Part shown: positions 12,347 to 59,712 of the stretch, in pieces | How positions within the stretch are numbered: position 1 is the stretch's first letter | Layout: each line of letters begins with the position of its first letter | Source: Puniceicoccales bacterium | GTDB taxonomy: Bacteria; Verrucomicrobiota; Verrucomicrobiia; Opitutales; JAIRLM01 | Length of the DNA stretch: 64,000 nucleotides | NCBI GenBank assembly: GCA_031282835.1 | Contig: JAITCU010000020.1 | Span: 15,805 to 79,804 of the forward strand | Direction: 5' to 3' | The notes under the pieces: model-generated | The model's input: the letters and a program-made list of their open reading frames with translations, nothing else | Told to the model about the DNA's origin: nothing | Databases searched by the model: none | Translations under genes and position numbers: made by a program

Positions 12347-12390
12347 GAATAGAGATCCTGCAGAAGTCGCTTTTTGGCCATTTTGCAGGG
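12347..12390 (-). repeat. partial, inverted-orientation copy of the ~97-bp palindromic element
   Basis: GAATAGAGATCCTGCAGAAGTCGCTTTTTGGCCATTTTGC matches the reverse complement of the right arm of the 45982-46078 element over about 38 nt. The remainder has diverged. Confidence 0.45.
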
Positions 12391-12552
12391 CCGCTATAGA
12401 AATCTCAAAACCCATTGAAAAGTTCGCTTGGCCAAAATTTTTGCAAACAACCTGAGTTTGAGAAACGTTGGGAACAGCTTTTCGGGACGTTTGACGCTGG
12501 CTTCCAGTCGTGCTTGCTTTTCGTCGGTTTTGGTGGCGAGGATTGAAGCCTT

Positions 12553-13484: not shown

Positions 13485-14909
13485 TTGCTAGGGATGGCGA
13501 AGGATGCGATGAGCGGGTGCGCCGTGAATAACTTTGAAGATGTGGGCGAAAATGAGGTTCCATTTGCTGCGCTTTGGGGTGAACTGCAAAGCGATTTTCG
13601 CCAGCTATTTTCCGAGGATGTGTACCGTGTATGGTTTGCTAGTTTGCGTCCGGCGAAGGTGTCCGGGGATTCGCTTACCCTGCTCGCTCCCAATGAATTT
13701 GCTGCCATTTGGATCCGCGATAATTACAAGTCGCTCATCGAGTCTCAAATTGCCAAGCACACGGGGCGCAACATTTCCGTCGCGTTGGAATTTGCCGACA
13801 ATCGGGCGGAGACCGCGGCCAACCCCGTTGGACAAAACCAGCGGGCGAATACGGCGTCACGCTGCGCCGATGCCATGCAGAAATTCGACGAAACCTATTC
13901 GGTAAATTCCAAAAATACCTTCGAAAGTTTTGTAATTGGGCCTGGGAACCAGCTGGCACAGGCAACCTGTGTCGCCGTGGCGAGAAATCCGGGAAAGGCC
14001 TACAATCCGCTCTTTCTCTACGGGGCGACGGGGCTCGGGAAGACGCATTTGCTGCAAGCTATTGCCCATGAGGCGCTTAAAAAGAAAGCGCGGTTGAAAG
14101 CGGTGTATATTTCGACGGAAAAATTTACCAACGAATTCATTAAGTCCATCCAGGAAAACCGCGTTTCCAAATTCCGCGAAATGTACCGCGGGGTGGACCT
14201 CCTGCTCATCGACGACATCCATTTCATCGCCGGCAAGGAGCGGATTCAGGAAGAATTTTTCCACACGTTTAACGCGCTTTTTGAGTCCCAGCGGCAAATT
14301 TGTCTCTGCAGTGACCGGCCGGCGTCGGAAATCACAGGGCTGGAGAGTCGCCTGGTGTCCCGTTTCCAATGGGGATTTATCGCGGATATCCAGGCGCCGG
14401 ATCTGGAAACGCGCATCGCCATTTTGCAGCGAAAGGCGACCGCCATGAATTTGGAACTGGCCGAGGACGTTATCCATCTCCTGGCCAAGGGGGTGGCGAG
14501 CAACGTGCGCCGGCTGGAGGGCGCGCTTAACCGCGTGGCCGGGTACATGGCGCTAAAAGGTCGCCCGATCAATGTCGCCGACGCGCAGGACCTGCTGAAG
14601 GACTTTTTTTCCGATGAGCAACGGACGGCGAGCATTGGGCAAATTCAACGGCGCGTGGCCGACCACTATCGAATTACCCTTGCGGACATGTTGGGTAAGA
14701 AGCGGCCCGCGCGCATCGCCTTCCCCCGTCAGGTGGCCATGTATTTGTCGCGGTTGCTCACGTCGCATTCGCTCCAGCGCATCGGCAGCGAATTTGGCGG
14801 CAAGGACCATGGAACCGTGATCCACGCGTGCAAGGCCGTTGAGCTTGCAATTGAGCAAAACCCGGACGTGCGGCGCGACGTCAAAATGATCCAGGATGGC
14901 CTGCGGTGA
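13485..14909 (+). CDS. dnaA: chromosomal replication initiator DnaA
   Basis: AAA+ motifs GATGLGKTHLLQAI and LLLIDDIHF, and a C-terminal DNA-binding region SLQRIGSEFGGKDHGTVIHA. The start codon is ambiguous (Met at 13485, 13494 or 13509). Confidence 0.9.
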   Translation: MLGMAKDAMSGCAVNNFEDVGENEVPFAALWGELQSDFRQLFSEDVYRVWFASLRPAKVSGDSLTLLAPNEFAAIWIRDNYKSLIESQIAKHTGRNISVALEFADNRAETAANPVGQNQRANTASRCADAMQKFDETYSVNSKNTFESFVIGPGNQLAQATCVAVARNPGKAYNPLFLYGATGLGKTHLLQAIAHEALKKKARLKAVYISTEKFTNEFIKSIQENRVSKFREMYRGVDLLLIDDIHFIAGKERIQEEFFHTFNALFESQRQICLCSDRPASEITGLESRLVSRFQWGFIADIQAPDLETRIAILQRKATAMNLELAEDVIHLLAKGVASNVRRLEGALNRVAGYMALKGRPINVADAQDLLKDFFSDEQRTASIGQIQRRVADHYRITLADMLGKKRPARIAFPRQVAMYLSRLLTSHSLQRIGSEFGGKDHGTVIHACKAVELAIEQNPDVRRDVKMIQDGLR

Positions 14910-16715: not shown

Positions 16716-16790
16716 GCCATGCGGGGACGACGATTAAAACGGGACCCTTCGAAAATATTTGCTAGATTTTTACGTTCCAACGAAAAAGCG

Positions 16791-16855
16791 TTGACAACCA
16801 GCCACTTTCAAGCAGCATAATTCCCTAGAATTCGAATTCTAAAAAAAGGATTAAT
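16791..16855 (+). promoter_or_regulatory. cassette C1 promoter/operator
   Basis: TTGACA(16791-16796), 19 nt, CATAAT(16816-16821), TCCCT, AGAATTCGAATTCT (16827-16840, a perfect palindrome), AAAAAAAGGATTAAT, then ATG at 16856. Four other loci have the same layout. Confidence 0.55.
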
Positions 16856-16981
16856 ATGAAAAAAGATACCACTATCCCCGTCTCCGCGACAAGTATTCCC
16901 GATGGCGATTTAAAGCTGGCATGTTCCGAGCCCAGGCCTGATGAAGTGATTGACTGTAACAGTGATAATGTAATCCCATGA
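16856..16981 (+). CDS. 41-codon upstream ORF translationally coupled to alaS
   Basis: MKKDTTIPVSATSIPDGDLKLACSEPRPDEVIDCNSDNVIP. An SD-like AAGGA lies 6 nt upstream. Its TGA (16979-16981) overlaps the alaS ATG (16978-16980). Below the ORF-track size cutoff. Confidence 0.45.
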   Translation: MKKDTTIPVSATSIPDGDLKLACSEPRPDEVIDCNSDNVIP

Positions 16982-19695: not shown

Positions 19696-20027
19696 TCGTA
19701 CAGATGTGGTATTCCAGTCTCCACCATGCCAGCCCAATCCTGCCTCATTGAAGTTAAACACGACTCCATCTCTTGTCGTTGTCGATCAATCGTCATTGGG
19801 TGGCACGCTCGCATGACGACCCATCCAATAATTATCCCCGTATCAGAATTGCTCATAGGGCATACCGAAAATCCCGAATCACATCTGAGCGTCCTTACAC
19901 GTTCCATGAGATCTGAATAGCAGTCGTCACTTGCGTCACACATCAAAATGTAGCGAATAATTCCATCACTGGCATATTTGCTAGCTAAACAATATTCATA
20001 TTGCGAACGTGGAAAACCAACACCCAT
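19629..20027 (-). CDS. hypothetical small Cys-rich protein
   Basis: 132-aa ORF in a visibly A/T-richer stretch. Weak resemblance to the neighbouring 119-aa ORF (QYEYCLASKYASDGIIRYIL vs EFEYNCISFCRPEDGTTIWLL). Its 3' end overlaps alaS convergently. Confidence 0.35.
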   Translation of the reverse strand: MGVGFPRSQYEYCLASKYASDGIIRYILMCDASDDCYSDLMERVRTLRCDSGFSVCPMSNSDTGIIIGWVVMRACHPMTIDRQRQEMESCLTSMRQDWAGMVETGIPHLYDYNDARIGVLIPRFHFRVEETS

Positions 20028-20086
20028 AGGCAGTCAATCAGACGAAGTCAGGCAAAAACGCAAGTAAATTTTTTTTAACAAAACGC

Positions 20087-20446
20087 TCATCCGTTAACTC
20101 GCTCTATTTCTACAAACCGCGCCTTGCACGCCAGTGGGAACCCTTCTACCGCCCCTATGAAAGCACTCAAAGATTTACAATGTAATTCGGATTGCATAGG
20201 ATGAAACTCCCTAGAAAGAAGCCATATAGTAGTTCCATCCTCTGGACGGCAAAACGATATACAGTTATATTCAAATTCTGTAGCAATACCATTTAGCGCC
20301 TCTGCTATCGACACGCACGCAGGAGTATCTGGCACGCATGTTGCACAGACAGCATAGCCCACACCGCGGGGACTTTCCGCGGAATTGAATTTTACCAAAT
20401 GCTCCATTGTCCGAGTGGAGCGAGATTTAAGCGTGCATGCAAGCAT
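20087..20446 (-). CDS. hypothetical small protein
   Basis: 119-aa ORF (possibly starting at MEHLVKF, 20407). Same strand as sctSTU and downstream of it. No motif recognised. Confidence 0.4.
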   Translation of the reverse strand: MLACTLKSRSTRTMEHLVKFNSAESPRGVGYAVCATCVPDTPACVSIAEALNGIATEFEYNCISFCRPEDGTTIWLLSREFHPMQSELHCKSLSAFIGAVEGFPLACKARFVEIERVNG

Positions 20447-20670
20447 TTTTTTTGAACCCGGACGCCCCCTATTTCTTTTCCGCTGACCTTGTGGGCCATA
20501 TCGACCGCGGTGTTATTTCTAAGGTCCATGTCCGTACGGTCTCTTTCAGAGTTATACCAGCGATGGATAACGAATCCGTGCGATTGCCGTGACAAATTTT
20601 CACTCCGCCTGCATATTTCGTCTTGACTTTCAATCGAAAATTCCCATAAAAAAACGCAGTTCTTTGACAT
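20392..20670 (-). CDS. hypothetical 92-aa protein downstream of repeat copy 1
   Basis: MSKNCVFLWEFSIESQDEICRRSEN... has a protein-like composition. The homologous position in repeat copy 2 lacks the ATG and has an in-frame stop. Confidence 0.35.
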   Translation of the reverse strand: MSKNCVFLWEFSIESQDEICRRSENLSRQSHGFVIHRWYNSERDRTDMDLRNNTAVDMAHKVSGKEIGGVRVQKKCLHARLNLAPLGQWSIW

Positions 20671-21160
20671 TTTTCTAAGATTTGTGAAGCATTACAGACA
20701 TCGACCTGCCGTTTGGTCCTTTCGCCGAGCATGGTACTCGCACCTGAAAATGGTGCGACCGGCCGTGGGCGAGAACAAACTAATGGTGGGAAAGTTGCTG
20801 CGGTGGTATAGCAAGTGGCAGAAAAAATTTTATTCGTATACCGTAAGATCTGCGTATTCATTGCGTTGTGATATGGGAGCAGGTGTAAGAGTCGATTTTA
20901 AAGCATTCCGACTTCTGCAAAAGCTCCCCTGTCTCGACGCTCAAACGAGCATTCCTATGCAAGCATGCGATTCTTTGATAGACTTCTAACGCTTGTGAAA
21001 TGGTGCAGATTTCGACTTGTCTCTCGGTCCTTTCGCCGAGCATGGTACTCGCGTCTGAAAATGATGCGACCGGCCATGGGCGAGAACAAACCATTGATGA
21101 GAGGATTTTGCAATGGAAAGCAAGTAGCAGAAAAAATTTTATTCATATGCCGTAATGTCT
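20640..21160. repeat. tandem duplication, period 311 bp, with a ~150-bp highly conserved core
   Basis: 20697-20855 and 21008-21160 align by eye with few substitutions (GGTCCTTTCGCCGAGCATGGTACTCGC...GCGACCGGCC.TGGGCGAGAACAAAC...GCAGAAAAAATTTTATTC). Each core contains a 7-bp stem-loop, at 20738-20758 and 21049-21069. Confidence 0.75.
20862..20981 (-). pseudogene. decayed duplicate of the 92-aa ORF
   Basis: At the position homologous to ATG 20670 the sequence reads CTA (20981-20979). The frame gives LSKNRMLA and then TAG at 20957-20955. Confidence 0.3.
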
Positions 21161-21316
21161 GAGCACCCGCTGCGTCATAACGTCCGGGCTTGTGTCTCTT
21201 TTGGCTCCGTGTCCAATTAAAAATTTACCGCATGATCGTCGCGAAAGAGCCAACGCCGTTGCCGCCGAAGCGCTACATAGGCTGGGGTTCGGGTATTTTC
21301 CGAAAAAGCAAGATGC

Positions 21317-22432
21317 CTATTCTTCCTCTTCCAAGTACATGCCGAGGTCTTCGCGGGCCATGTCGACTTCGATGTTGCTCTCGCCAGCCTCCTGCAAATC
21401 CGCCACCCAGCGCAAAACCTCGGCCACCGCCTCAAGGAGCTGGGACGGAACATACTCCATCGCGTCCGCCGAGTCCATTAGCGCATGGGCCAGGGGGACG
21501 TTGCGCATGATGGGAATGCCTTCCGCGCGGGCAATGGCTATCATTTCCGCGGCGAGGATACCCTCGCCCATAGCCAACACGACGGGCAGTAGGGTAAGTT
21601 CCTCCTCGTAGAGTATGGCGACGGCCAGATGTGTTGGATTGGTAATCAGCGCCGAGGAACGCTTTGTGCGCTGGGCTGGACCCTCGTTCATCATTTCCTG
21701 GTGGATTTGCTTGCGTTTGCTTTTGATTTCCGGGGAGCCCTCCATTTCCTTATATTCGCGCTTAATTTCACTCTTGGACATCATCATCTTTTTGTTGAAG
21801 TCACGACGTTGGAAGAAGATATCCGCGACGGCGACCACCATATAGGCAAAGATGACCAGAGACGCGAATTTCTTCATCACCGGGCCAATAAACGCTATCA
21901 GACCCGACACCCCCGAGTAGGGCAGCAGGATCATCTCATCCAGCTGCGATTTGATAAGCCGGTAGATTAGGATACCCAGGAAGGTCACCTTTAAAACAGA
22001 TTTGAGAAATTCGAAGATATTTTTCTTCGAAAAGATCTGTTTAAATTTCTCTATGGGGTTGAGCTTTTTAATGTCAGGTTTAATGGGTTCGGTCGTGAAA
22101 ATGGCTCCCACCTGCATGAATCCAGCGGCAATGGCAAAAGCGGCCACAATCCCCAGTATGGGAAGGAGCAGGTCGACCAGTTCCGCAAAGCAGGCGGATA
22201 TAACCGCGCTCAGCCCCTGGCGGAACGGAGCACCGAAAAAGGGCACGGGGAGAACCAAAAATTCCTGAAGCTCGTCCACCGCCGTCCACCATTTCAGGCC
22301 GATGTAGGCAAATACGCCGATGAGCAAGACCGTGGACGTGAAATCCTTACTGTAGGCGACTTGTCCCTTTTTCTTTGCATCACGCAACCGCTTGGGTGTC
22401 GGCTGTTCTGTTTTTTCCTCGCCCTCTCCCAT
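21317..22432 (-). CDS. sctU: type III secretion export-apparatus switch protein SctU (YscU/FlhB family)
   Basis: 371 aa with four N-terminal TMs, the NPTH autocleavage motif (ALITNPTHLAVAI) and PIMRNVPLAHAL. Confidence 0.9.
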   Translation of the reverse strand: MGEGEEKTEQPTPKRLRDAKKKGQVAYSKDFTSTVLLIGVFAYIGLKWWTAVDELQEFLVLPVPFFGAPFRQGLSAVISACFAELVDLLLPILGIVAAFAIAAGFMQVGAIFTTEPIKPDIKKLNPIEKFKQIFSKKNIFEFLKSVLKVTFLGILIYRLIKSQLDEMILLPYSGVSGLIAFIGPVMKKFASLVIFAYMVVAVADIFFQRRDFNKKMMMSKSEIKREYKEMEGSPEIKSKRKQIHQEMMNEGPAQRTKRSSALITNPTHLAVAILYEEELTLLPVVLAMGEGILAAEMIAIARAEGIPIMRNVPLAHALMDSADAMEYVPSQLLEAVAEVLRWVADLQEAGESNIEVDMAREDLGMYLEEEE

Positions 22433-22438
22433 GGCAAC

Positions 22439-23227
22439 CTATCTCCAAAAAATCCTCACGAACTGGAGGGCACGGCTTTCTCCGAAGAAATGGGATTTAA
22501 AAAATCCCATGAGAAATGACAAATAGAGAATGATAAATAACGACGAGAGACCACTTTTAATGCCCATGGACAGGAAAAACACGTTAAGCTGGGGCGCAAA
22601 ACGATTGACCATACCCAAGCCGAATTCGGCAAGGAATAGGGCAAACAGAATCGGACCCACGAGAGCGAAAACGACATTGGCGTAATCGCTCGTCAATTGT
22701 ACGAAAAACGCCGCAACACCGCCGTCGAACATGGGAAATAGCGAAAACAGCGGCCACAGCCGATAGCTTTCGTAGAGGAGCTGCAGCAGAAAAAGAAATC
22801 CGCCGGTGATGAAAAAGAGCAGGAGGACGATTTGGACGAAAAAATCTGCCATCACCGTCGTTTGGCTCTCATTAAAGGCGCTGAACAGGGAAGCGGATGA
22901 GGCACCCCGCTGTACATCGATGAGATTCCCCACACCCTCCACGACGAAAAAAATAAAACTGGCCAAAAAACCGAGGACAAGCCCGATGAGCAGTTCCTTG
23001 GTGCAAAGCATGATGATCAGTCCCAGGCTGATGTCAGGGTTAATAAATTCCTTGTGGAGAACTGGATAAATAAAAAGCGTCAAGCCCAAAATCCATGCGT
23101 TGCGCCCCATGCCCATCACATTTTTTTTTCCGAAAAACGGAATGACCGAAAACATCGCTGCCGTGCGCACGATGCCCATGATCATCACAAAAAAGAAGCT
23201 GCGGAATATGAAGAGGAACGAAGGCAT
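22439..23227 (-). CDS. sctT: type III secretion export-apparatus protein SctT (YscT/FliR family)
   Basis: 262-aa polytopic membrane protein located between sctS and sctU, with FliR-like hydrophobic periodicity. Confidence 0.8.
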   Translation of the reverse strand: MPSFLFIFRSFFFVMIMGIVRTAAMFSVIPFFGKKNVMGMGRNAWILGLTLFIYPVLHKEFINPDISLGLIIMLCTKELLIGLVLGFLASFIFFVVEGVGNLIDVQRGASSASLFSAFNESQTTVMADFFVQIVLLLFFITGGFLFLLQLLYESYRLWPLFSLFPMFDGGVAAFFVQLTSDYANVVFALVGPILFALFLAEFGLGMVNRFAPQLNVFFLSMGIKSGLSSLFIILYLSFLMGFFKSHFFGESRALQFVRIFWR

Positions 23228-25218: not shown

Positions 25219-25413
25219 TTATGGTGATATTTCCCAAGTGGTTTTTGTGGCTGGCAGCGGGCTAGCCCGTTCTAAAAACGCAGGAAATTCTCGTGCAGAC
25301 GAGGGTTCCAGTTTGAAGCCAGGTGTCAGTCCTGGGGTTAGGGACGTTTGCAGTCCCCAATCGTCATAAAAAATATCTGCCTCGAACGCGGCGGTAACGG
25401 TGGTGCTTTTCAT
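25219..25413 (-). CDS. cassette small protein, 64 aa (C2)
   Basis: MKSTTVTAAFEADIFYDDWGLQTSLTPGLTPGFKLEPSSAREFPAFLERASPLPATKTTWEISP. SD AAAGGAGAA upstream. It aligns full-length with the 61-aa C3 ORF, with an in-frame 9-nt indel, the same stop and several third-position-only differences. Confidence 0.5.
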   Translation of the reverse strand: MKSTTVTAAFEADIFYDDWGLQTSLTPGLTPGFKLEPSSAREFPAFLERASPLPATKTTWEISP

Positions 25414-25477
25414 ATTGAATTTTCTCCTTTGAACTCGAATTCGCAGGTTATATTGTTGGCAAGCGGGTGTTTGTCAA
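25414..25477 (-). promoter_or_regulatory. cassette C2 promoter/operator
   Basis: TTGACA(25477-25472), 19 nt, TATAAC, CTGC, GAATTCGAGTTC (25442-25431), AAAGGAGAAAATTCAAT, then ATG at 25413. Confidence 0.55.
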
Positions 25478-25533
25478 GCCAACTTGTAAAAAAAATGCGA
25501 AGGCCCACGAAAAATCCCTATTCACGCGGTGCC

Positions 25534-26436: not shown

Positions 26437-26650
26437 AAAACCTCCTCCTATGCCTGCTTGGCCTTGAACCGCGGGGCAACCTTATTAATGACGTACACCC
26501 GCCCCTTTCGCCGTACCACCTTACACGCGGGATGCCGGGACTTCAATGAACTCAACGACGCTGCAACCTTCATGACTGGCTCCACGCTGTACCACTGGCG
26601 GTGGATGTCAAGGCGTCCTTGGCAAGGATCTTGATTTTTTGGCTGTGCTA

Positions 26651-26747
26651 TAACAGAGGTCCTGCAAAAGTCGGAAACACTGTCTTAAGACCCGCATTTC
26701 ATGAGGGGCAAAATGGCCCAAAAGCGACTTCAGCAGGATCTCTAATG

Positions 26748-26750
<3 letters not shown>
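26651..26750 (+). repeat. ~97-bp palindromic element, copy A
   Basis: TAACAGAGGTCCTGCAAAAGTCGG...CGACTTCAGCAGGATCTCTAATGTTA: imperfect ~20-bp terminal inverted repeats around the internal hairpin CCCGCATTTCATGAGGGG. The right arm contains the stop codon of the Pro-rich gene on the other strand. Confidence 0.7.
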
Positions 26751-28382
<1,632 letters not shown>

Positions 28383-32884: not shown

Positions 32885-33007
32885 AATTTAAAAGTCCAGT
32901 ACTGTTGTTGTCTTCGGCTCACTTGCCGAAATAATAACCCGTCATTTGTTTTTTTGTTAATTAGTTCCCATTGCTTCTCCAATCAGATAAGCTAGCTCAT
33001 TTTCTAT
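32885..33007 (-). promoter_or_regulatory. conserved leader, cassette C3
   Basis: GAGCTAGCTTATCTGAT, AATGGGAACTAATTAACAAAAAAA, and GTTATTATTTCGGCAAGTGAGCCGAAGAC with the stem-loop TTCGGC/GCCGAA (32913-32930). It ends in ATGGCATTG at 32884. Confidence 0.4.
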
Positions 33008-33193
33008 TTAGGGAGATATTCTCCAGGTGGCTTTCGCAGTTGGCAGCGGGCTGGCCCGTCCTAAAAACGCAGGAAATTCCCAAGAAAATGGGGGTTCCAG
33101 TTTGAAGCCAGGTGTCAGTTCTGAGACTGGTAACGTTTGCAATTTGCAATCATCATTAAAAATATCTGTCGTAGCTGTGGCGGTACTTTTCAT
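33008..33193 (-). CDS. cassette small protein, 61 aa (C3)
   Basis: MKSTATATTDIFNDDCKLQTLPVSELTPGFKLEPPFSWEFPAFLGRASPLPTAKATWRISP. SD AAAGGAGAA upstream. Paralog of the C2 ORF. Confidence 0.5.
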   Translation of the reverse strand: MKSTATATTDIFNDDCKLQTLPVSELTPGFKLEPPFSWEFPAFLGRASPLPTAKATWRISP

Positions 33194-33257
33194 ATTGAAT
33201 CTTCTCCTTTGAACTCGAATTCACAGACCATATTGCTGGAGAATAGGCGTTTGTCAA
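33194..33257 (-). promoter_or_regulatory. cassette C3 promoter/operator
   Basis: TTGACA(33257-33252), 19 nt, TATGGT, CTGT, GAATTCGAGTTC (33222-33211), AAAGGAGAAGATTCAAT, then ATG at 33193. Confidence 0.55.
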
Positions 33258-33829
33258 TCAACTTTTGAAAATTGTGAATATTTTTTGGGAAATCCCGCTT
33301 TATCCGGGGCCCGAGTCTGTCGGGATGGTTAAGAAATGCGCGCAGCACTTCAGGGGCCCACGTTCAACGGCGTTTGATATTTACTGGCTAGGGCGCGTTG
33401 ATTTTGAAAAAGGCAAAAAATTTTCTCTTTGCGTATTTAATACTCCTAGAAGTTGCTTCCCCAGATTTTCATCGCCACGGGGAGATGGATGCGCGTGTGT
33501 GCCCGACTGCGTGATGATTGAATGCCCCTTATACCCCCCAATGGAAGAAGTCTATGGCAAGAAATTTCTCACGGAAGTAGATTTTGGGTTGTTTCGTCTA
33601 GCATGGAGTTCGGATTTTGCAACGGCGGTTTCAACTTCCGCAAAAGCAGTGGGGTCCTTGGGAAGTACGTTAGCCTTTTAAGGCTACGGAAACTTTGACC
33701 GAGAAATTTCCGCGATCTCGACCTCCCAATCGGATTTCTTGGCCAACCGTGCCGCAGGTTGAGCCGTTTGCGTTTCGCATTTTACGGGCCCCCGGCCGCA
33801 TATACGGGGAGAAGCCTTTTCACGGGGGC

Positions 33830-40664: not shown

Positions 40665-42620
40665 TCATGCCTCATATTGCAAGGTTGCAATGTGGCTTTC
40701 GTGCCGAGACTTTCTTCCTCTCCACTTCCAGCTTTTTCGGCCATTTCGATGCGGTTTTTCAGGTATGACAAATTCGTCCATGTTGAGCGTTGGCTTTCCA
40801 GAGAGGTCACCTTTTTGGAAAAACTTTCCGTAGGGATCGGCTTCATCCGGTGAGACCTCCACGATGCGCGGGGAGATGATGAATAGGCGCTCCATGGTTT
40901 CCGTTGCCCGATCGGCCATGCTGAAAAGCCGGCCAACAACGGGCAGGTTCTTTAGGACTGGGATCCCACGCCGCCCATCGCTGTGGTGCTCATAGTAATA
41001 GCCGCCGACGATGAGGCTCTGTCCCTCGTTGAGGATGGATTGGGTGTTAATTTGACTACTGCTGACCAGAGGCATTCCCGCGGAGCCTCCGGAGTCGGAC
41101 ATGGCCCCGTCTTCGATGCTGACAAAGAGTTTGATTTTACGCTCCACTGTCCCATCCGACCTGGGAATCTCGATGATGTGGGGGATGACACGCAGGGCGA
41201 CCTTTGCGGAAACGGTGAATAGATCCGTGGCATAGGCGCCGGCCACGGGCACGTAGGTTTCCCGGTTATTGGAAATAACGGCGGCGATATTATCCAATGT
41301 CAGCACCGAGGGGCGGGAGAGGGTCTTTGCCGCACTGGATGACTCCAAAGCTTGCAACCGAGCAGTGATTCCCGATGCTCCAATGTTCGGGACCTTTAAA
41401 TAGAAGTTTAAATTTTTGTCGTCCAGTGTCACGTCCCCGCCTTCCGTGCGCCACAGCAGAGATCGTTCTCCATTAAGGAATTCCAGTACGTCGATACCCA
41501 TTTTGTGACTTCTGCCCACGTTGATATCCACGATGGCCACGTCGATTTCAACGGCCTTCGTGGGGACGTCAAAGCGGTCGATCAGCGATTGATAAAATGG
41601 CATGAGTTCCTTGCGATCCCTTATTATTACTGCATTTTGCCGGGCATCGTAGGTAATGGCGGTAAACTTTCCAGTTAGGTTCCTGGCCTCAGCTTCTTCA
41701 ACGGAGGTTTTAGTTTTTCTATCGTCCGTGGTCCGCAAAGGCTTGGAAGATAGCTTGGTAATTCCTTTCAATTGCGAAACCTGGGTTGATTGTTTTTTCG
41801 CCTCCTGGTCCTGTTGGGCCGCTTGTGCAGCCAACTGTTGGGCCTGATTTATCGCCGAGGAAACCGCAGATTGCTGCTGCAGTACTCCATCCAGGGTATG
41901 GGGCTTGGCCGGCGCACCCAGTAAGACGCTCTCCTGCATGACGTTGGGGATGGTGTTCATCCCGCTCAGGATGCGGGTTAGGAGCGTTGCCACGCCTTCG
42001 ATGAGGACGCCGTTGCCGGTGCCAACGTCTAATGTGACGTCGTAGGCGAAGGCATATTTTAATGGGAAAATTTGAACCACGGTTTCATCGGCGAAGTTCT
42101 GAATGGCATTCGTTTGGACCTTGGCGAGGAACGTGCGCAGTACCTCGAGGAACCGGGGCGGCCCGCTGGCGACCATCATCCGCGTATCTGGAACGTAGCG
42201 AAGGACGGTGTTTGACCCGGCAAAATCCAGGTCAGACACAACCTTTCGTAGGGCCGAGGCTTCTTGGGCGGTCATGGAAATGACCTCCGTCTTTATTTCC
42301 GTCCCCGGGTAGACGTAGAGCGCGGTGCCGTCGTAGAACCAAATCAAGTTGTAGGCCTTGGAGAGTCGCTCCCAAAATTCATGCGGCGGAATATTTTCAA
42401 AAATTCCGTTCACAATGCCGGACAATGGCGCGCCGATGACCACGTCCACCTGCTGAATGGCCGTGAAGTCGTGGATGAGGGCGTTGAGGTCTTGGTTTTG
42501 CGCAAAATGGTAGTAGTGCTCATCCGCCCATGGAATCTCGCCGGCCTGGAGCAAGCCGCCGAGTAGGGAGGAACCGATCGCCAGTACCGTGGACGAAAAA
42601 AAACGACGAAACAATTTCAT
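40665..42620 (-). CDS. sctC: type III secretion outer-membrane secretin SctC (YscC/InvG family)
   Basis: 651 aa with a signal-like N-terminus. The N-domain FWERLSKAYNLIWFYDGTALYVYPGTEI matches the YscC/InvG signature (L.WYYDGN.LYIY). The C-terminal secretin motif is GIPVLKNLPVVGRLF. Confidence 0.9.
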   Translation of the reverse strand: MKLFRRFFSSTVLAIGSSLLGGLLQAGEIPWADEHYYHFAQNQDLNALIHDFTAIQQVDVVIGAPLSGIVNGIFENIPPHEFWERLSKAYNLIWFYDGTALYVYPGTEIKTEVISMTAQEASALRKVVSDLDFAGSNTVLRYVPDTRMMVASGPPRFLEVLRTFLAKVQTNAIQNFADETVVQIFPLKYAFAYDVTLDVGTGNGVLIEGVATLLTRILSGMNTIPNVMQESVLLGAPAKPHTLDGVLQQQSAVSSAINQAQQLAAQAAQQDQEAKKQSTQVSQLKGITKLSSKPLRTTDDRKTKTSVEEAEARNLTGKFTAITYDARQNAVIIRDRKELMPFYQSLIDRFDVPTKAVEIDVAIVDINVGRSHKMGIDVLEFLNGERSLLWRTEGGDVTLDDKNLNFYLKVPNIGASGITARLQALESSSAAKTLSRPSVLTLDNIAAVISNNRETYVPVAGAYATDLFTVSAKVALRVIPHIIEIPRSDGTVERKIKLFVSIEDGAMSDSGGSAGMPLVSSSQINTQSILNEGQSLIVGGYYYEHHSDGRRGIPVLKNLPVVGRLFSMADRATETMERLFIISPRIVEVSPDEADPYGKFFQKGDLSGKPTLNMDEFVIPEKPHRNGRKSWKWRGRKSRHESHIATLQYEA

Positions 42621-45759: not shown

Positions 45760-45872
45760 AGTGGCAGACTCTCAAACGATTCTCGGGCCTTGCCAAGGAA
45801 AGATATGCCGGCACCATCGAAACGGGGTTCCCCGGGAATATTTACAAAATCTTCGCATTTCCTCCGAAAGCG

Positions 45873-45937
45873 TTGACAAGCGCCCATTCTCAAGCAAGAT
45901 AGTCCAAGAATCTGGATTCTAAAAAAGAAAGTTCAAT
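45873..45937 (+). promoter_or_regulatory. cassette C4 promoter/operator
   Basis: TTGACA(45873-45878), 19 nt, GATAGT, CCA, AGAATCTGGATTCT (45907-45920), AAAAAAGAAAGTTCAAT, then ATG at 45938. Confidence 0.5.
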
Positions 45938-46111
45938 ATGAAAAATGTCATCATTATCGCCCCGCCCATGGCAGATATTTTTAATAGAGGTCCTGCGAAA
46001 GTCAGAAACACTGCCTTGAAACCCGCATTTCATGCGGGGCAAAATGGCTCAAAAGCGACTTCTGCAGGACCTCTATTATCCTCTTACCAACGTAGCCGGC
46101 TAAAACATTAA
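45938..46111 (+). pseudogene. cassette small ORF interrupted by the palindromic element (C4)
   Basis: MKNVIIIAPPMADIFN shares the ADIF(Y/N) motif with C2/C3. From codon 16-17 the frame runs into the 97-bp element and reads through it to a stop at 46109-46111. Confidence 0.4.
45982..46078 (+). repeat. ~97-bp palindromic element, copy B
   Basis: TAATAGAGGTCCTGCGAAAGTC...GACTTCTGCAGGACCTCTATTA, with the internal hairpin CCCGCATTTCATGCGGGG. Confidence 0.75.
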
Positions 46112-46674: not shown

Positions 46675-49600
46675 CTAACCAACCCAACGTGGGATCCAGA
46701 GGGCAACGGCCGCGATGCCCGATGCGGCCCCCGGAAAGAAAAGAAGTGCGTATCCCCAGATGCCAATGGCAAGGATACCGATTATGTTGGTAAATACAAG
46801 GGCCAAAGCGGCGGCGATGAGCAGCAAACCGGAAATAATAGTAAGCGCGATGGCCCAACGTGGGTGCAGTATCTTCCGAGTTGCCGTGACTTGCATTATT
46901 TTCGATTTTGAAGGTCGATCGGGCACGACGGCAATGTCCTCTCTTACCGGGATGTTACCGTCTCCGTCGGGCCAGGTCTTGCCACAGCCCATTCCGAGGG
47001 GCCGGGAGTGGGAAATTGTTGTCCTAACATCCTCCCTGTCCTGGGTCGGGGTGCGGAGGAGGAGATAGTTTTGCCGCAGATTCAACAGCTTTGGATCGTG
47101 ATGTCCCTCACCGTCAGCGGCCATCACCTGCGCCACAAGGTCGCTGTTTTCCGTGAGGAGGTAGGGTATGTTTGCATTAAAAAGCGCCAATTCGCACAAC
47201 TTCCGCTGGCGGAACTCTTTAAGTTCATCCGGGATCTGCCCGTGGAGGCATGTGCCGGTTCCGGCGAGATAGATGCAGCAATTTTGCAGGTTTCCCTCCT
47301 TGGCGCGCAATGTATCGTACTCTTGCTTGGAAACGGCGATTGCACGTGGATTGGTCCTTTCGCTCTCCCATGTGATGACTAAATAACTGCAGTGCTTCTG
47401 GGTACGGTCGAAGACCGTATGTTCGGTTTCGCAGGATTGGGCGAAATTGCGGCTCAAATACAAGTCGGACGGAAAACAAGCGTCAAATTGGGAATAAATT
47501 TCGCGATCCTTCGGGTCCATGGGCCCGCCGTGCTCTCTTATTTGTTCGGGAACCGAACGACTTTTATCGGCGAAAAAGGTGTGCATATCCGTTGGACCAT
47601 CAATGATGAGCAGGTCCTCTTCTTTGGGATCCAGTCGATCGCCATAGCCGACTCGGGTTAGAAATTCTTCCAGCTGCAAATTAACGGAAATATTGCAGTT
47701 AACTTCCACCTCGGTCTGTTCTTGCACTTCGACCTGCACGGAGGCGTCGACATCCCCGGCATAGTTATCCGCGCCAACGGTGACGCATATGCCTTCCGTC
47801 CCTTGGAGGATTCTTACCTTTGTTTCATTGAAAGTTTTGGCGGCTTGTTCATCGAAGCGATCCAACAGTTGCGACTGCTCTAATTTTGTTTTTAATAGTT
47901 GTACTTTCCGATTGTAGTAGGCCTCAACGGCTTCATTGAGCGACATCGTGCGTTGGAGTGCAAAAAACATGGCTTCCGGCGAGAAATCATCCACTTTAGT
48001 CAATAGTTCTCCGACGGCGTTGGAAAAAATTGAAAGCCGCCAAGGGTCACTGGCCAAAGCGATCGCCGTCCGGCGGATGAAATCATCGACGAGTGTGTCC
48101 ACCTTGTCGTAACTGGCCCGGATGTATTGCTGGATAATGCTGCGCGACTGATTTCGCTGCAGGGTCGCATATATGTCCGCGGCCGTCGGTTCCCCGCCGT
48201 CCGCGAGGCGAAGGAATTGCGGCCGCGATTTTTCCAACGCCATGTAGTCAATGGTTTGCGAGCTGAGAAAGGCCCGCGGGCGGATATTCGCTTGGGCATT
48301 GCGATCGGTCGTTAGCCAGCTGGGATCGAGGGTTTGGAGTGCATGGCAATCGATGGGAAGCGGGAGGTCGGTACCCGTGCAACGTTGTTCGTCGTAGTAT
48401 GCAAAAAGAGCGTTGAAATCGTTGACGACGGCCGCCAGGGCCTCCCGGTTCATCGGCCGGATTGCGATGGGCTCCGTTCGATCCGCGCAAAGGACGAAGA
48501 ATGTCTGCCTATCGGGATCGTAATAAAGCACATGACGCACATCCGGAATGTCTTTCTGCGCGAAAGCCAAAATATCCCGCGCCACATCCCGTGGATGCTG
48601 GCCGTTGAGCAATGCTCCGGCGTCAATGAGTGCCCGCAGGCCTGTCACACCACCGACATGGGCCTCCAGCAGCATTTTCGCCGTTGGCCGCGCTTCACCG
48701 TTGTCCACGAATTGAATGGGCTGGGGCCGAGCGCCCATGAGTTCACAGTTCCGGGCAATGACCTGGCCGTCGCTGCCGGCCTGCAATTGGATGTCGACCT
48801 TGGCAAAGTTATATACGCCCTTGTTGGCCATGGTTCCGGAAAATCCGACGGTGCGGCTGAATAACCGCGGAAACTGTGCCGATTTACTCTCAACGGATTG
48901 GGTGGAAAAATGGATGCTTTTTTGGGCAAAAATTCGCGCAACTTTTTGCCGGCCGGAAATTTGAGTGTCTTGCCGAAGGAATGCGCACAGGCATTCGCAT
49001 ATCTTTTTCCGCGTGGATGGATCTGCCGTGGTTACGAGCGTTTCCACGGTCACCGGGCGATCCTCATAGTTGCAGTCCTTGAAGATTTCGTCAAATTCGT
49101 CGAAGGCCTTCCGCTGGCTTTCCTCGTCCGCCACGAGTCGCGATAACATGTCCACGTAGCTCTCAAGCATCCGCAGGGGAACGCCATCGATACTAATTCC
49201 AGCAAAGAAACAGCAGGCCGTCTGGTAGCAATTTTTGAATTCACTGCCCAGGTTGGGCTCGTTGGGCCCTTTGAAGGGGATGCAGGCGCCGTCGAGACCG
49301 AAGCCGAAGTTTTGGTTATATTTTTGCGTGAAAAGATGGGGCAACAGCGTGCCCAGCAGGCCCCGGGCTATGAGTATGCGATCGTAGGAGCGGAGGGATG
49401 CGGCGGTGCCCTGTTCCTTTTGCTGCTGTAAAAAGGCCAAAAATGCGTTTGCTTCCTGGCGCGTGGCGGTGTCCGTCTCCGGGACGTTGTCAAACTGGCC
49501 AAGGACGTATTTGTGGAAGGAGTTGCGCATTTCGTCGGGAATTTGAATGGCAAATTTTTCTTCAAGAACGTTTTGGGACAGCCGCCGCAGCACTTCCTGA

Positions 49601-52600
49601 ACTCGGTCCGGAGCCATGAGATGCTGCTGATTTTGCCGGAGTTCGGGACAAATCTCTGCAACGGAAATAATCACGTCACTGATAAAATCCAGATGCGCCT
49701 GGGGCATTCCCGGCAGCTGTCCGGCTGCCGGAGGTAGGGAAACATTCAGGTATTCCAGCGGGTTGAGGATGCGGTCAATTTCGTCGCCGATGAATATGGC
49801 ATCTTCGCCGAGAAGTTTGAAGATGTCTAGCAAAGTTTGGAGGCAAAGTTCATCCGTTTTGTTCCGCTGGGGCTTCCGCGCCAGGAGCTTGAATTGGGCT
49901 TCGAGTATTTCGATGGTGGTCGGGTCGATGACGAACACCCGGTCCCGCTCCTCCAGCGCCATTTGCATCTCCCGCAAAAGCCACTCCAGATTCCACGGTT
50001 CCCGTGTGTCCTGGAGGGTGAAGTTCGCGGACACAACCCGTATGTTCAGCCGCGAAAAGCTGGGTGCCAGTTCTGCGCGGAGGGCGTCAAACTGGGATTG
50101 ATTGTGGGCACAAACAAATGGGAGCTTCCGCTGCTGGGCTACCCGGGCGGCGTAGGTGGGGATGACCACACTCGTCTTTCCGGCGCCCATCTGCATTTGT
50201 ATGACCGTATCCGTTGGATTTTCCGCCCCCAAACCATCACACAATTTTTTAAGGATGTCGATTTGCCCGCGGCGGGCGTGTTTGCCGCTAACATATTCGT
50301 TGAGAAGGGCGTAGGGGTAACTTTCCGGGTTGTAGGTGTCGTCCCATTCTTCTAATTGGTCGAATAGGCGACTTTGGCAGGCGGACCGGCGGGCACCGTC
50401 ATTACCACCGGCACGTTGGAGGTCCTGAATGACTTGCATCAAATTGGCCATGCGGCGGAACATAATTTTGTGCCGCATGTACTGATGGGAACATTCCATG
50501 ATTTGAGGGACGTCGTCCGGCGTGATGCTGGGATTATATTTTTTGAGGAAATGAAAAAATCGCGCCGTATCGGGTGGCACGCGCGTTGCGAATTGGCCGT
50601 AGGCGGCGATGACCGCTTTGAGCTTTATGGGCGCGGAACAAACGACAACGTCCTGTGCCATTAGCATGGGACTCGGTTTGTTGACCAAGGCGAGGAGTTC
50701 CTCATGCAATTTCCGCGTCTCGGCGCGCATTTTTTGGCGGTGGACCTCGATGGATTGAGATGCGGCGTCACAATCGAAGGGCACCTTCTTAAGTTCCTCG
50801 TTGCGAGCTCGCTTGAGAGCCAATTGCTCGGCGCCGGTCTGGATTTCGCCGTTGAGTTCTTCGAGGGATTTTTGAAACGCATCGCCGATGGTATCCCGGT
50901 CGTCTGGGCTTAATTTTTTCAGATAATCCGCTGGAGTAAAATGGAGTGGACTTGCGGGCGCGGGCGAAGGGTTTTGGTGGAAGGCCACGAGCGCTCTTCG
51001 TAAACCTCCAAGGGCGGTTCCGACTCGGAAAAGTTCATCCTGCATGGGCAGGACTTGCAAATCGTGTGCCGCGGACGAGCCACTTTCCATGGCTTGAACT
51101 TTCTCTTCCTTTGCCAGCAACGGGTCGTAGTGCCGTAACCGTTCCGCCGGTTGTGCAAACTCTGCGGCAACTGAACCCGGGCGCAAAAAGTGGTCCAATG
51201 ACAGTAAACGCTTGGCAATGATCGGCTCCTGCGGATTGAGAATGCCGATGGACGCAAGGTGTTCCAACAGGCGCCGCTCCCGGCGGGGATCCATGCGCAA
51301 TTGTAGGGGCATGGAAGGTAAATTTTTGAGGTATGTTTCGAGGAGCGTCCCCAGGGGTTCGTTTTCAAATTTTAAAGCTCCCTCCCTGGGTTTGAGCACG
51401 GCGATGTCATTGCAATTGAGGCCGTACATTTCCGCCCATTTTTCCAATAGGAGCATGTGAACGGCGGCAACCTTCCCGGAATACCCCTTCATGCGTCGGC
51501 CTTCTAAAAGACAGTCTATCATAAGCTGGTGATGGACCGGCGAGAGGGCGGCTCCGGCGTGAAGTCGCTTAAAATATTCCGCAGCTTGGTCGTAGTCGCC
51601 CTGGAGCAGAAAAATGACGCCCAGTTGCAGGTTCCCGTCGTTGGATAATCCATCCAGGCGGGTTGCACCCGGTTCTTCCCGGCGTTGGACGAAGTGCGCC
51701 TCCACGGGTGTGGCTGTCCCGATGAAAGGCTTGTCCATGGTTGGCGTATTGCAGAAGGCGGAGGACACGGTTGCCCCAATTGGCCCAGCTCGCCCAAGCA
51801 TCTGGGCCACGCCGTCGGGCGCCGCATCATCCAATGCATCATCTCGCTGTGATTGTAAGCCGACGGCGGGCATTATAACTTTGTAGGAACCGGGCTGTTT
51901 CGTATTATGCAAAAAAATCGCATTTTTGTAGCTCCCGAGTGGGTTTGATTTTTTATTGCCGCCCGGGCCGGCGTACATCTCCGGCACGTCTACCAGCTGG
52001 TAATCCGTGCCGCGCTGCATCCATTTGTCGTCGCGCAACTCAAAGCATAAATCATAACGAGGGGCCCAGACCTTTTGCAGCTTGTTATGCGCATCCACAA
52101 AAAAAGCGCAATTTTTCTCATTTTCGAAGCGGGAGAGCCATGTGACACTTTGGGGGTTAGGATGGGGCGCCAAGAAAAGGCCCTTGTATGGTTCAAACGT
52201 GCACTCCAGTTTCCAGTCGGGACCGCTTCCCTGGCTTTGGAAGTAGATGATTTCTGGATGTTTCCGATCGCGCACCTGCAGTTGTCCACCGGGCCCCATC
52301 CATGCGGTGTATGTTTCGCTGCATAGCCAATTCGGAAGTTGAAGAGCCCTTTGTAAAATTCTCGCCGGTGCGTACTGCCACCACTGGTCCGATTTACCGA
52401 AATTGGTGCTAATCACCTGTCCATGCGTACCATAGGAAAGTCGGACGTTCCCGTAGGCTGGATCGGTGAAGGATGTCCATTCGCCGCTGTGGATAAATTC
52501 GCGGTTTTCAGGGCCAAAAAGCCGCTGATAGTCCCGCGCACTGGTGAGTGTGTCCGCCGTTCGAATTTCGTGCCCGCCCCAGAAAACGTGGAAATTGTTA

Positions 52601-55600
52601 AAATCTACCCAGGAATTTTTTGGCACCTCTCCCCCCATGCGTTGGCAGAAACTTGCCAATATTGATCGTTCGATGCGTGCCCGTTTGTTTGGAGACTTTT
52701 GCAGGAGACCACCCAGCTCTGGAACGGTACCACAAATGGTTTTGTAGCAGGAGTGCGGTATGCCTTGTAATTTGAGCGCGCGGGAGGCGAAAACGTCTCC
52801 GTAGAACCCGACGAGGAGTCCATCATCGATTTCTTCAATTTTGGAGCCATCGGTGAAGAACTTCATCCGTTCCACGGCGAGCTCGACCCTGGCTAGGTGT
52901 AAAATCGCCTGTTCGTCCGAGCCCAGGGTGCGGCCAAACTTTCTTTCTATTTCGTCGAGTTGCTGTAACCTCAATTCGACGGATGGGAAAATGGGTTCTT
53001 CGGTGGAACTAAATGGGCAGCCATGTATCTCCATGTGGATTTCTTGACACTGATGGATGAGGTGTGCCATGTAACAAAGGGCGTGTACGTCTGGCCGCTG
53101 GAAGGGTTTCATTTCCAGGTGGAGGCGCAGGACGGAGTTATACGTATCTTGCAATACTCTGAATAATTTTTCCGGATTTCGTTCGATCTCATCGGCAAGG
53201 GAACAAACCGGTCGGCTGGCAAACGGCCTTTCTCTGAAGAGTTGGCCATCCATTACGTAATGGGATCTGTTTTCCGCGGCGTTGGGAATGGATTCCGGAC
53301 GCTCGGCCTGTTGAAAGTTGGCAAGCAGCATGTTGTCCAACAGCGCAAGGAGCATGGTCTTTCCGTGCTGTTCCCTGTCATCGACGCCGAAACGGCTGAA
53401 TAGATCCAGGTGTGAATTGATGATGTCGAAGAGGGAATACACCTGCGTCCCGGGGACGGAGAGGGCCTTCCCAATTTCATAGAATAGGGGATGCTCGGCA
53501 AACGCCGTGTTGCCACCGTTTAGGAAACGTTTGCTGTGATATTCCAGCTTGGCCGGGGCGCCACGGCCATCGCACACCAGCTCAGGGACATGGGTCACAT
53601 TCCATGGGTCCAGGGCGGACACGTGATTTTCATCGTTGAAGCAGCGCCAATTGAACTTATCGCGTTCGTCCCAGTAATCCCACATGAGAGGAAGTTGATC
53701 CGATTGGACGCAGGCGCTCTCAAGTTGTACGCTTGGAAGCTGGTGCGGGTAAAATTCGTTGAATAAAAGTTTCGGACCGGGGATACCACCCAAAATCTTG
53801 CGCACGGACTCCCAATGGGCGCATTGGTCCTCAAATACGTATTTCGTGTCGTCGACGGATCTTGCCCAAACGTACGCCCATTTTCGTTCTTCGAAAAACT
53901 TGTCCATTTGGCCGTCAGGAGCTCCCGGGACTATCTTGCCAGCCACATTTTGAAAACCGGGACACGCCGCTGAAAAGCGTTGCAATTGACTCATGCCCTC
54001 GTCAGGTCCATGGCCGCCGTAGTTACAATACGAACGCATATAGGAATCACTGCGATCGATGGTTCCACAACCTAACGAAAAATCCACGGTCTGTGACTTG
54101 TTGTGCCTGTAAAAGTCTAACACCTTTTGCTGTCGTTCGCGATCTGCGGCGGACATGGATTGGCATGCGTCATTGGCGGTAAATAATTCAAATACATGGC
54201 AATCAAGTGAATATGCGGACAGACTGTCATCTGTCGCGCCACCGAGGCCTCCGGGCATTTTTAATAGCCAGAATGTGACCAGCCTGATATTGGTCACTTC
54301 CGCCGCGAATGGGGCCGCAATGTGCCAGGGGAGTTCGGCGCTGCTTTGGTCCAAAATTTGTTCCTCGAGGCCGGAACTGAAGAAATGTCGGTAGCCATCG
54401 GTTACGGACGACAAACTACCCCCCATTTGCTCGGTTAGCTTATCTAAGAATCTAGCAAAGATAGCAACGCACCGCTTATGGTCGTCAGAGTTCCCCTGCG
54501 CCCAGAATGGATCATTGGGCAATGGCAAAAGGGACATCAATTCCTTGGCGTAAAAGATACCCGCGTAGTCGTAGGGTTTACTTGTGGTGTCAAATGAGAA
54601 ATTCGCCATCGCATTAAGAACTTTGGCGTAATCTCTCTTTAGCAATTCGATTTCCGGGCGGACGATCTCAATGTGGGGGACCACATCGGCTTCGGTGGCC
54701 TTGTGAAGCACGCTTTGAATTTTAGCCGACATGTCACCACCCGGCGGCGGGGCGATGGTTTCAGGGAATGCATTTCGCGTCTCCGCCTGGTGCATGGCTT
54801 GGTAGTATTCGGGACTTTTTAGTGTGGTGTCGCATCGGTTCAAAAGGGCTTCCATCCCGTCAACGTATGGCGCAGCATCCGCGGAAAGTTCCTTAAGCCT
54901 ATGGCCATATTTTCTTAGAAAAAGCTCCGTGGTACCGACGCTTTCCCGGAGCATCCACAATTGATCCATTTTCCGCGCCGGGTCTCCAGCGGGATCGGTA
55001 AGTACATTGCTACAATGGTCATGAAGTGCCCCAAGCGCGCCCAGGCGGTTGAAGAGTTCGATGAGCCGCGTGTATTCACCGCTGCGTTTGACGAGCGCTT
55101 TCAATTCCGAAGGTGTTCCGTGTGGGTGTTTGCGCAAGAGATGCTGATAGATCGTCATGCGGAAGAGTGCCGCCAACGAAGCCCATGGGTCTTTATCGGA
55201 AACCTTGGAAAATAAATCCCCACGCAATGCTGCATGGCCATCCAGGAGAACCTCGTGGCCAATCTGGGTACTGGGATCCTCACCCCCCCAAAGTTTTTCG
55301 AAATTGCCTTGCTGGGCTGCAAATTCAATGAATTTGGGTAGAATGCTTTTGAGTGCATCCGCATTCAGGTGGAAGGACCGGCCCAGTCGGCTTTTTTCTA
55401 CGAAGGACGCATGCCTCTGTTTGTCGAATTCACCGCGCGCCCGGCTGGAACTAACATCGATCTCATGAAAATAAAATGTCCCGTCATCCAGCTTCTCAAC
55501 CACCACATAGCAGCAACTGGTTTGGCCATGAGCCTCGGGATAAGTGAGAGGCATGCAAAATCGTTGGCCTGGGTTTAGCGTACGGATTTTCTCAGAGATT

Positions 55601-56172: not shown

Positions 56173-56284
56173 TAGGAGGCTAAATGCTATTGTCGTCTTC
56201 GGCCGATTTGCCGAAGTAATAACTCGCCTTTTTTGTTAATTGATTTTCATTGGTTTTCCGATCGTCCAAGCTAGCTTGTTTTTT
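56173..56284 (-). promoter_or_regulatory. conserved structured leader, cassette C5
   Basis: AAAAAACAAGCTAGCTTGGACGATCGG, AATGAAAATCAATTAACAAAAAAGG, and GTTATTACTTCGGCAAATCGGCCGAAGAC with the stem-loop CTTCGGC/GCCGAAG (56197-56216). CCTCCT lies immediately before ATG 56172. Confidence 0.45.
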
Positions 56285-56329
56285 CTACTTACCCGCCGTG
56301 TGGGCGGTGATAATGGTAATACTTTTCAT
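56285..56329 (-). CDS. 14-codon cassette ORF (C5), internally deleted version of the C2/C3 ORF
   Basis: MKSITIITAHTAGK. It has the same promoter, SD and ATGAAAAG start as C2/C3. Whether it is translated is unknown. Confidence 0.3.
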   Translation of the reverse strand: MKSITIITAHTAGK

Positions 56330-56392
56330 GTTGAGCCTTTTTTTAGAATCCTGATTCTGGAATTATCTTGCGGGTAAGTTTGGGAATGTCAA
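56330..56392 (-). promoter_or_regulatory. cassette C5 promoter/operator upstream of the giant gene
   Basis: TTGACA(56392-56387), 19 nt, GATAAT(56367-56362), TCC, AGAATCAGGATTCT (56358-56345), AAAAAAAGGCTCAAC, then ATG at 56329. Confidence 0.55.
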
Positions 56393-59620: not shown

Positions 59621-59712
59621 AAGTCCTGCAAAAATCAGAAACACTGCCTTGAAGCTCGCATTTTATGCGGGGTAAAACGGCCAAAAAGCGACTTCTGCAG
59701 GACCTCTAATAG
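59617..59712 (+). repeat. ~97-bp palindromic element, copy C
   Basis: TTAGAAGTCCTGCAAAAATCAG...GCGACTTCTGCAGGACCTCTAATAG. The left arm contains the cmk stop codon TAG. Confidence 0.7.

Follow-up and report, generated by a model that had tools for sequence, protein, structure and literature searches.

The locus at positions 26651-26747 of the 64,000-nt stretch of DNA analysed here (referred to as the window) raises the question of what an imperfect palindrome represents that abuts the stop codon of a proline-rich gene and recurs elsewhere in the same stretch: a mobile element, a hairpin maintained by the host at gene ends, or a product of chance or of assembly. The window encodes the proteins MDR2677321 to MDR2677344 of a Puniceicoccales MAG (Verrucomicrobiota, Opitutia). 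An earlier note on this DNA had described the palindrome as a REP/MITE-type repeat of about 97 bp, occurring in three full copies of the same orientation and one partial reversed copy, positioned on stop codons and possibly doubling as a bidirectional terminator.

A dispersed family of 97-bp palindromes

The following sequences in the window were assigned to the family:

26651-26747, plus strand: copy A, full length, 97 bp including the flanking TA...TG
45982-46078, plus strand: copy B, full length, 97 bp with TA...TA flanks, the best-preserved copy (left terminal repeat 45984-46003, central hairpin 46022-46038, right terminal repeat 46057-46076)
59615-59711, plus strand: copy C, full length, 97 bp with CA...TA flanks
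12347-12400, minus strand: copy D, an internally deleted derivative with both termini kept (ATAGCGGCCCTGC joined to AAAATGGCC...GCAGGATCTCTAT)
33558-33653, minus strand: candidate decayed relic with GCGGAAGT...ACTTCCGT arms and CCCAAAATCTACTT core, a weak assignment

In agreement with the earlier note, the three full copies share one orientation and are each exactly 97 bp long, a length that counts the dinucleotide just outside the conserved end. They align without gaps and are 88% (A/B), 87% (B/C) and 82% (A/C) identical over 95 columns, and no exact word longer than 25 nt is common to the window copies. A repeat scan without prior bias recovered the copies both as a direct family and as inverted pairs, a 23-nt core pattern matched the window four times with 0.00 matches expected from shuffles, and a pattern for the terminal repeat matched seven times with 0.07 expected. 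A search of the entire window, with filters off, using a covariance model derived from four copies returned only A, B, C and D (124 bits for copy B, 30.3 bits for copy D) and the weak candidate at 33558-33653 (19.8 bits, E 0.003-0.009), which is located downstream of groEL and upstream of the small-ORF paralogue p33. The dispersed repeat family is real. The left parts of A and C recur with 100% identity in independent Logan assemblies of this strain, so that an artefact confined to a single assembly can be dismissed. Two of these Logan contigs (SRR14710905) end within A and C near the central hairpin, position 1 of L001 corresponding to window position 26686 and position 2527 of L020 to window position 59664; these breaks suggest either near-identical copies elsewhere or a drop in coverage at the hairpin.

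Copy D had been taken for a half copy at 12347-12390. Its reversed orientation was borne out, and the sequence reaches to about 12400, keeps both termini and lacks about 46 internal nucleotides. In a MAFFT alignment the left terminal repeat is matched by ATAGCGGCCCTGC, which ends near 12399 on the minus strand. The junction lies in GCAAAA, a hexamer that is present twice in full copies (CCTGCAAAAGTC and GGGGCAAAATGG), as is typical of a microhomology deletion.

Each copy constitutes one long hairpin that consists of an outer stem, a 3-bp GCC/GGC helix and a central 7-bp hairpin, CCCGCAT-TTC-ATGCGGG. The outer stem is formed by terminal inverted repeats of about 22 bp (TAGAGGTCCTGC..AAGTC). Its consensus, (A)WTAGAGGTCCTGC-RA-AAGTC ... 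GACTT-CW-GCAGGAYCTCTAWT, comprises 17 pairs spanning 18 nt per arm, with up to 23 contiguous pairs in one copy. The arms are complementary in copies A, B and C as well as in copy E1 from a related genome (see below), and the central hairpin is broken in copy A. Folded as RNA, the copies reach -33.5 to -49.1 kcal/mol, and the z-scores for both strands range from -4.4 to -8.2, copy B being the most stable (-49.1 kcal/mol, z -8.2). The proposed arrangement of terminal inverted repeats of roughly 20 bp around an inner hairpin was confirmed, and the copies fold far better than shuffled sequences. The element is non-coding: stop codons occur in five of its six frames, one frame being open, and a query of concatenated six-frame element peptides found no homologue with E<=10 among 5.8 billion proteins.

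Gene context, related genomes and insertion sites

With respect to neighbouring genes the settings of the copies differ. Copy A lies between tandem genes of the same strand, copy B inside a small ORF, copy C between convergent genes and copy D in the spacer between divergent genes for a pfkB-family kinase (minus strand) and a pseudouridine synthase (plus strand); ORFs read through copies A, B and D. The features next to A and C are:

26748-26750, minus strand: TAA stop codon of the proline-rich gene, abutting copy A, the last conserved base of which is at 26745-26747
26448-26573, minus strand: rpmJ (ribosomal protein L36, 41 aa), start at 26573, between copy A and rpmE
59618-59620: TAG stop codon of cmk, inside the left terminal repeat of copy C
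59721-59796, minus strand: tRNA-Ala, its 3' end 9 bp from the right end of copy C

Copy A thus separates the stop codon of the proline-rich gene from the rpmJ-rpmE-nth operon, the first gene of which is missing from the ORF list because of its length cut-off of 50 aa. From copy A, rpmJ begins 77 bp downstream, and a TTGACA block (26606-26611) that is conserved in relatives follows at a distance of about 40 bp on the same side. The cmk product of the window is 2-3 aa longer than its orthologues and terminates within copy C, from which we infer that the left terminal repeat of this copy now provides the cmk stop and about 2-3 additional C-terminal residues. Of the notion that the copies are positioned on stop codons, the part concerning copy C holds, since the stop lies inside the terminal repeat; for copy A the stop is adjacent only, and to copies B and D the description does not apply.

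To look beyond the window, contigs of relatives were collected via protein look-ups. The relatives compared are not of the same species, the nearest being about 85% identical in coding DNA. Copies were present on two contigs:

L022 (JGI 3300042612), about 811-916: copy E1, 90.2 bits, 77% identical to the window copies, hairpin of -35.7 kcal/mol
L022, about 187-292: copy E2, 68.5 bits, degraded
L002 (MAG Pcl387_bin45), 1118-1222: one copy downstream of thyA, colinear, 65-68% identical

L022 carries a cmk gene 78% identical to that of the window at the protein level. The copy in L002 folds no better than shuffles (z -0.4), and the thyA site is without a copy in the window (54-bp spacer) and in L014 (55-bp spacer), neither of which gave a covariance-model match there. 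Likewise, the model detected no copy in L004, L014, L015 and L017-L019 (about 77 kb, a stretch of L018 that repeats L017 not being counted). Upstream of rpmJ, the element is missing from L002, L004, L014 and L015, where the flanking genes are 76-85% identical; downstream of cmk, it is missing from L017, L018, L019 and L022. An exact empty site is not reconstructable from these relatives, as the intergenic DNA is too diverged (76-85% identity).

No match to the exact 23-nt pattern was obtained among 185,579 species genomes or among JGI metagenome contigs, collections outside which the source MAG itself lies. A relaxed 26-nt core pattern yielded eight genome matches, only one of which is real (JAITKJ010000013.1, the copy downstream of thyA in L002); four matches in Verrucomicrobia were rejected as one conserved coding gene and the remaining ones as chance. 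The coding segment concerned (…GGGAAAACGGCGRAAAAGCGACTTNGGCA…), found in L005, L006, L011 and L012 from Chthoniobacterales and other Verrucomicrobiota MAGs, bears no relation to the element; its overlap with the pattern is due to chance. Elsewhere the relaxed pattern gave one chance match in metagenomes and none in viral contigs.

All in all, about eight copies were found, the window with about five in 64 kb being the densest region. The family is common to at least three related lineages and always resides at different loci. The earlier note had named confinement to the window copies as the outcome that would speak against its reading, and related copies do exist in two other Puniceicoccales MAGs. 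The copies form a series of decay: B and E1 are intact, A, C and E2 carry point mutations, D has lost internal sequence, and the L002 copy and the relic are unfoldable. Such a series is what selfish insertions without maintenance should show. The identity of 82-88% between copies gives no sign of recent activity.

Two of the insertions fall into a paralogous module that occurs at least six times and consists of a shared TTGACA-type promoter, the palindrome (A)GAATTCGAATTC(T), a ribosome-binding site and a small ORF (MK..ADIF..., e.g., the 64-aa MKSTTVTAAFEADIFYDDWGLQTSLTPGLTPGFKLEPSSAREFPAFLERASPLPATKTTWEISP). The members are:

16785-16900, plus strand: module member in the window
45867-45985, plus strand: module member in the window
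25219-25491, minus strand: module member in the window
33000-33271, minus strand: module member in the window
56229-56358, minus strand: module member in the window
L016, 10200-10380: module member outside the window
L022, 300-610, minus strand: module member in a relative

A conserved ...AATTAACAAAAAA... segment follows the small ORF in p25, p33 and p56. Copy B is located inside one module member (MKNVIIIAPPMADIF followed directly by the element), and homology to the paralogues ends exactly at the left end of the element, at position 45985. Downstream of copy B nothing is homologous to the paralogues, which argues for a deletion or later decay that accompanied this insertion. E2 interrupts another member, with flanks on both sides that are homologous to three paralogues from the window (…ATTAACAAAAAA to the left and CGGCAAA…GACAACAATGGCATT… to the right of the element). 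E1 and the relic at 33558 are each located 200-300 bp upstream of a module member.

Mobile element, host hairpin or single-stranded intermediate

MITEs are defined as elements of 70-300 bp with terminal inverted repeats of 15-30 bp (PMC3733652), and those of bacteria typically give rise to long stem-loop transcripts and have 5'-TA-3' termini (PMC2229807, Table 1). The element described here has a size of 97 bp, terminal inverted repeats and no coding capacity, and its dispersed copies occupy non-orthologous sites with presence/absence differences between related, not same-species, genomes. The location at non-orthologous sites in three genomes, the absence at the orthologous sites tested, the two insertions into the small-ORF module and the decayed or deleted copies argue for MITE-like behaviour. 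The family is therefore probably a lineage-restricted MITE-like mobile element. It is best classified as a new member of the bacterial MITEs, and nothing about it challenges the current understanding of bacterial MITEs. A full-text literature search retrieved no description of small mobile repeats in the Puniceicoccales lineage.

As a MITE, the element would be non-autonomous and moved in trans by a DDE-type transposase encoded outside the window, for which the terminal repeats of about 22 bp would be the likely binding and cleavage sites. Consistent with the statement of the earlier note that the window lacks a transposase, none was found among 20 window ORFs scanned with Pfam, mostly those without obvious assignment. 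A blastn search of the PLSDB plasmids for an insertion sequence with the same ends gave only two chance 30-nt matches, and neither the window nor these plasmids yielded a full-length insertion sequence bounded by such terminal repeats. Insertion may occur at TA-containing, AT-rich sites, as for IS630-mobilised MITEs. When eleven ends were aligned by eye on AGAGG, position -1 was T in ten and position -3 was A in nine of them. The dinucleotide at -4/-3 is TA at four of nine scorable ends (CA, GA or AA at the others), a palindromic TA being inseparable from the inverted repeat, and no direct repeat other than a possible TA was seen at the scored ends. A TA duplication of the IS630/Correia type is possible. 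Stop codons would be among the few sites with TA in a genome of 52% G+C, which might account for landing in A/T-rich intergenic DNA, often beside stop codons. After insertion, gene ends would be remodelled, as for cmk, and small ORFs disrupted, as for B and E2. On transcription, a copy would fold into an extended double-stranded hairpin (-34 to -49 kcal/mol, with a perfect stem of about 20 bp) that, by analogy with Correia and ERIC elements, could attract RNase III or protect a 3' end (PMC10969869; PMC2229807).

Alternatively, the hairpins could be functional RNAs or regulatory structures maintained by the host and spread by duplication, for example 3'-end stabilisers, processing sites, unconventional bidirectional terminators or small RNAs. 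The very stable folds on both strands, some compensatory variation and the location of copies at gene ends (A after the proline-rich gene, C between the convergent cmk and tRNA-Ala genes) are in line with such a role, and other MITE hairpins are known to affect the fate of mRNA via RNase III or RNase E (PMC10969869). However, the genomic context is inconsistent (tandem for A, convergent for C, divergent for D, inside an ORF for B), the orientation relative to transcription varies, and orthologous genes in relatives do without the element. Its copies also decay freely, the L002 copy being unfoldable, D internally deleted and the central hairpin of A broken. With regard to termination, no T-run follows any stem or is present in the flanks on either strand, and a terminator scan gave zero sites around A, B and C; neither the proposed bidirectional terminator nor a function as canonical Rho-independent terminator is supported. 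Nor is there an Rfam match. In Rfam 15 at the gathering threshold only tRNAs pass in the window, and at a relaxed threshold the best hit of copy B, and the only one with E<1, is mir-548 with 22 bits against a gathering score of 90, which is noise. Taken together, maintenance by the host as functional RNA appears unlikely.

A second alternative retains mobility and assigns it to a different mechanism, in which an HUH (Y1) transposase (REPIN/RAYT, TIRYT or IS200/IS605-derived) would recognise the folded structure, instead of terminal repeats in double-stranded form, and mobilise the hairpin as a single strand. The whole element being one long hairpin would agree with this mechanism, as would the lack of a convincing target-site duplication, and RAYT-like genes flanked by terminal inverted repeats and associated with repeat families have been described (PMC3733652). 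Further evidence comes from covariation. Over seven sequences 89.5% of the cells pair, and 5 of 27 stem pairs show changes on both sides compared to 2.2 in shuffles, 9 of 500 shuffles reaching the observed number, although this shuffle control is known for false positives with related sequences. Two-sided changes in both terminal repeats are also expected from co-recognition by a transposase. One of the five pairs with changes on both sides lies outside the terminal repeats and converts the internal GCC/GGC helix to GUC/GAC in both L022 copies. This may be read as a moderate hint that the pairing of the hairpin itself is maintained and not only the transposase-binding ends. Variable positions amount to 8 of 54 paired and 12 of 41 unpaired columns, a difference that is not significant (p=0.13).

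The distribution around dnaA (13485-14909), with the full copies to the right on the plus strand and the copy to the left on the minus strand, would fit a replication-strand bias, but the pattern comprises four copies, the GC skew is flat, the DnaA boxes are unclustered and no origin was located. Furthermore, no HUH gene is present among the window ORFs scanned, and no conserved 4-5-nt target is found to the left of the copies, unlike in IS200/IS605. As for the REP label, a REP is a 20-40-bp imperfect palindromic unit that carries a GTAG or CGTC tag (PMC3733652). GTAG/CTAC or CGTC/GACG at the ends is absent from the consensus and from every copy, and the arms hold no self-palindromic unit of this size. 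Of the combined REP/MITE designation the MITE part consequently stands, on the grounds of terminal inverted repeats and dispersed non-orthologous sites, and REP/RAYT membership is not supported. Mobilisation as single-stranded DNA is accordingly quite improbable. It is hardly likely, too, that the whole hairpin is under selection and that all copies share one orientation relative to replication, which would make it an untagged and undescribed hairpin element of Verrucomicrobiota, either mobilised as single-stranded DNA by an HUH-type enzyme or domesticated as a portable 3'-end module with TAA-TAG stops on both strands.

Among other classes, an integron attC site was rejected for its lack of GTTRRRY ends, a retron or CRISPR repeat for the lack of a reverse transcriptase or an array, and an IS200/IS605 end for the lack of a conserved flanking target. 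Finally, chance similarity or a metagenome assembly artefact can be dismissed as extremely improbable, for although the sequence comes from a MAG and chimeric repeats can arise in short-read assembly, shuffles are expected to give no match, the copies differ by 12-18% and are thus no duplicated read or adapter, the independent Logan contigs reproduce A and C, and related copies exist in other MAGs and metagenomes.

The host genome and comparison with known systems

The window that harbours the MITE-like family further contains type III secretion genes, specifying an SctU/FlhB-family protein, SctT and a secretin with an SPI-1 N0 domain, together with genes for two unusual proteins:

21317-23227, minus strand: type III secretion components
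40665-42620, minus strand: type III secretion components
46675-56172, minus strand: 3165-aa ORF
26748-28382, minus strand: 544-aa proline-rich protein

More than 40 prolines in a row and PEPE/EAEA repeats characterise the proline-rich protein, the L014 orthologue of which has 697 aa. The type III secretion genes, the 3165-aa ORF and the proline-rich protein suggest a host-associated Puniceicoccales bacterium. Between alaS and sctU, about 1.6 kb (19700-21300) are devoid of a convincing ORF and hold two tandem units of about 310 bp (20620-20866 and 20931-21175) that are 76-81% identical.

An uncultured Puniceicoccales lineage that appears to be host-associated thereby gains a MITE-like family. 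Repeats of this kind break up short-read assemblies, as exemplified by the two Logan contigs that end inside copies, and they can mislead gene callers, given the ORFs through A, B and D and the remodelled end of cmk. Copies of the element can also be used as strain markers.

Comparable elements, i.e., Correia/NEMIS, RUP and ERIC, are known only from phyla other than Verrucomicrobiota. The human mir-548 family derives from the hairpin of a mariner-type MITE (Made1). This resemblance concerns architecture alone, the score being well under the gathering threshold and the hosts belonging to another domain, and homology is not claimed. REP and REPIN sequences are likewise dispersed extragenic palindromes, a REPIN being a hairpin of about 100 bp made up of two inverted units. 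In contrast to REP/REPIN systems with RAYT, the arms of the present element are not palindromic REP units and bear no GTAG/CGTC tag, and no RAYT gene is seen in the window. ERIC/IRU and Rickettsia palindromic elements (RPE) are similar in being palindromic, about 100-150 bp long and located at the 3' ends of genes or read through in frame, for which the small ORF that reads through copy B and the cmk C-terminus remodelled by copy C provide parallels. They differ in that no sequence relationship is apparent and that no tolerated in-frame insertions into conserved proteins are evident here.

Closer in size is the 107-bp RUP of S. pneumoniae, which likewise is non-coding and has terminal inverted repeats; insertion sites that contain TA may be a further common trait. 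RUP is often inserted in other repeats or mobile sequences (PMC2229807), and two copies of the present element similarly reside inside the repeated small-ORF module. RUP is thought to be mobilised by IS630-Spn1, a matching parent insertion sequence, and has stops in all six frames, whereas the element from Puniceicoccales has no known parent insertion sequence and one open frame.

Correia/NEMIS elements, the MITEs of Neisseria, belong to Betaproteobacteria and not to Verrucomicrobiota, and no sequence similarity is apparent. The Correia consensus is TATAGTGGATTAACAAAAATCAGGACAA, unlike TAGAGGTCCTGC of the present element. For Correia elements a TA duplication is proven, and they have an IHF site, promoters and over 100 copies in a genome; of the element from Puniceicoccales, about five copies were counted in 64 kb. 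In other respects the two are alike: both are non-coding, fall into or close to a size range of about 100-155 bp, possess terminal inverted repeats of about 24 bp or similar length and have A/T-rich termini with TA. Both are also found in intergenic regions near gene ends and have long-hairpin transcripts, which in the case of Correia elements are substrates of RNase III (PMC2229807; PMC10969869).
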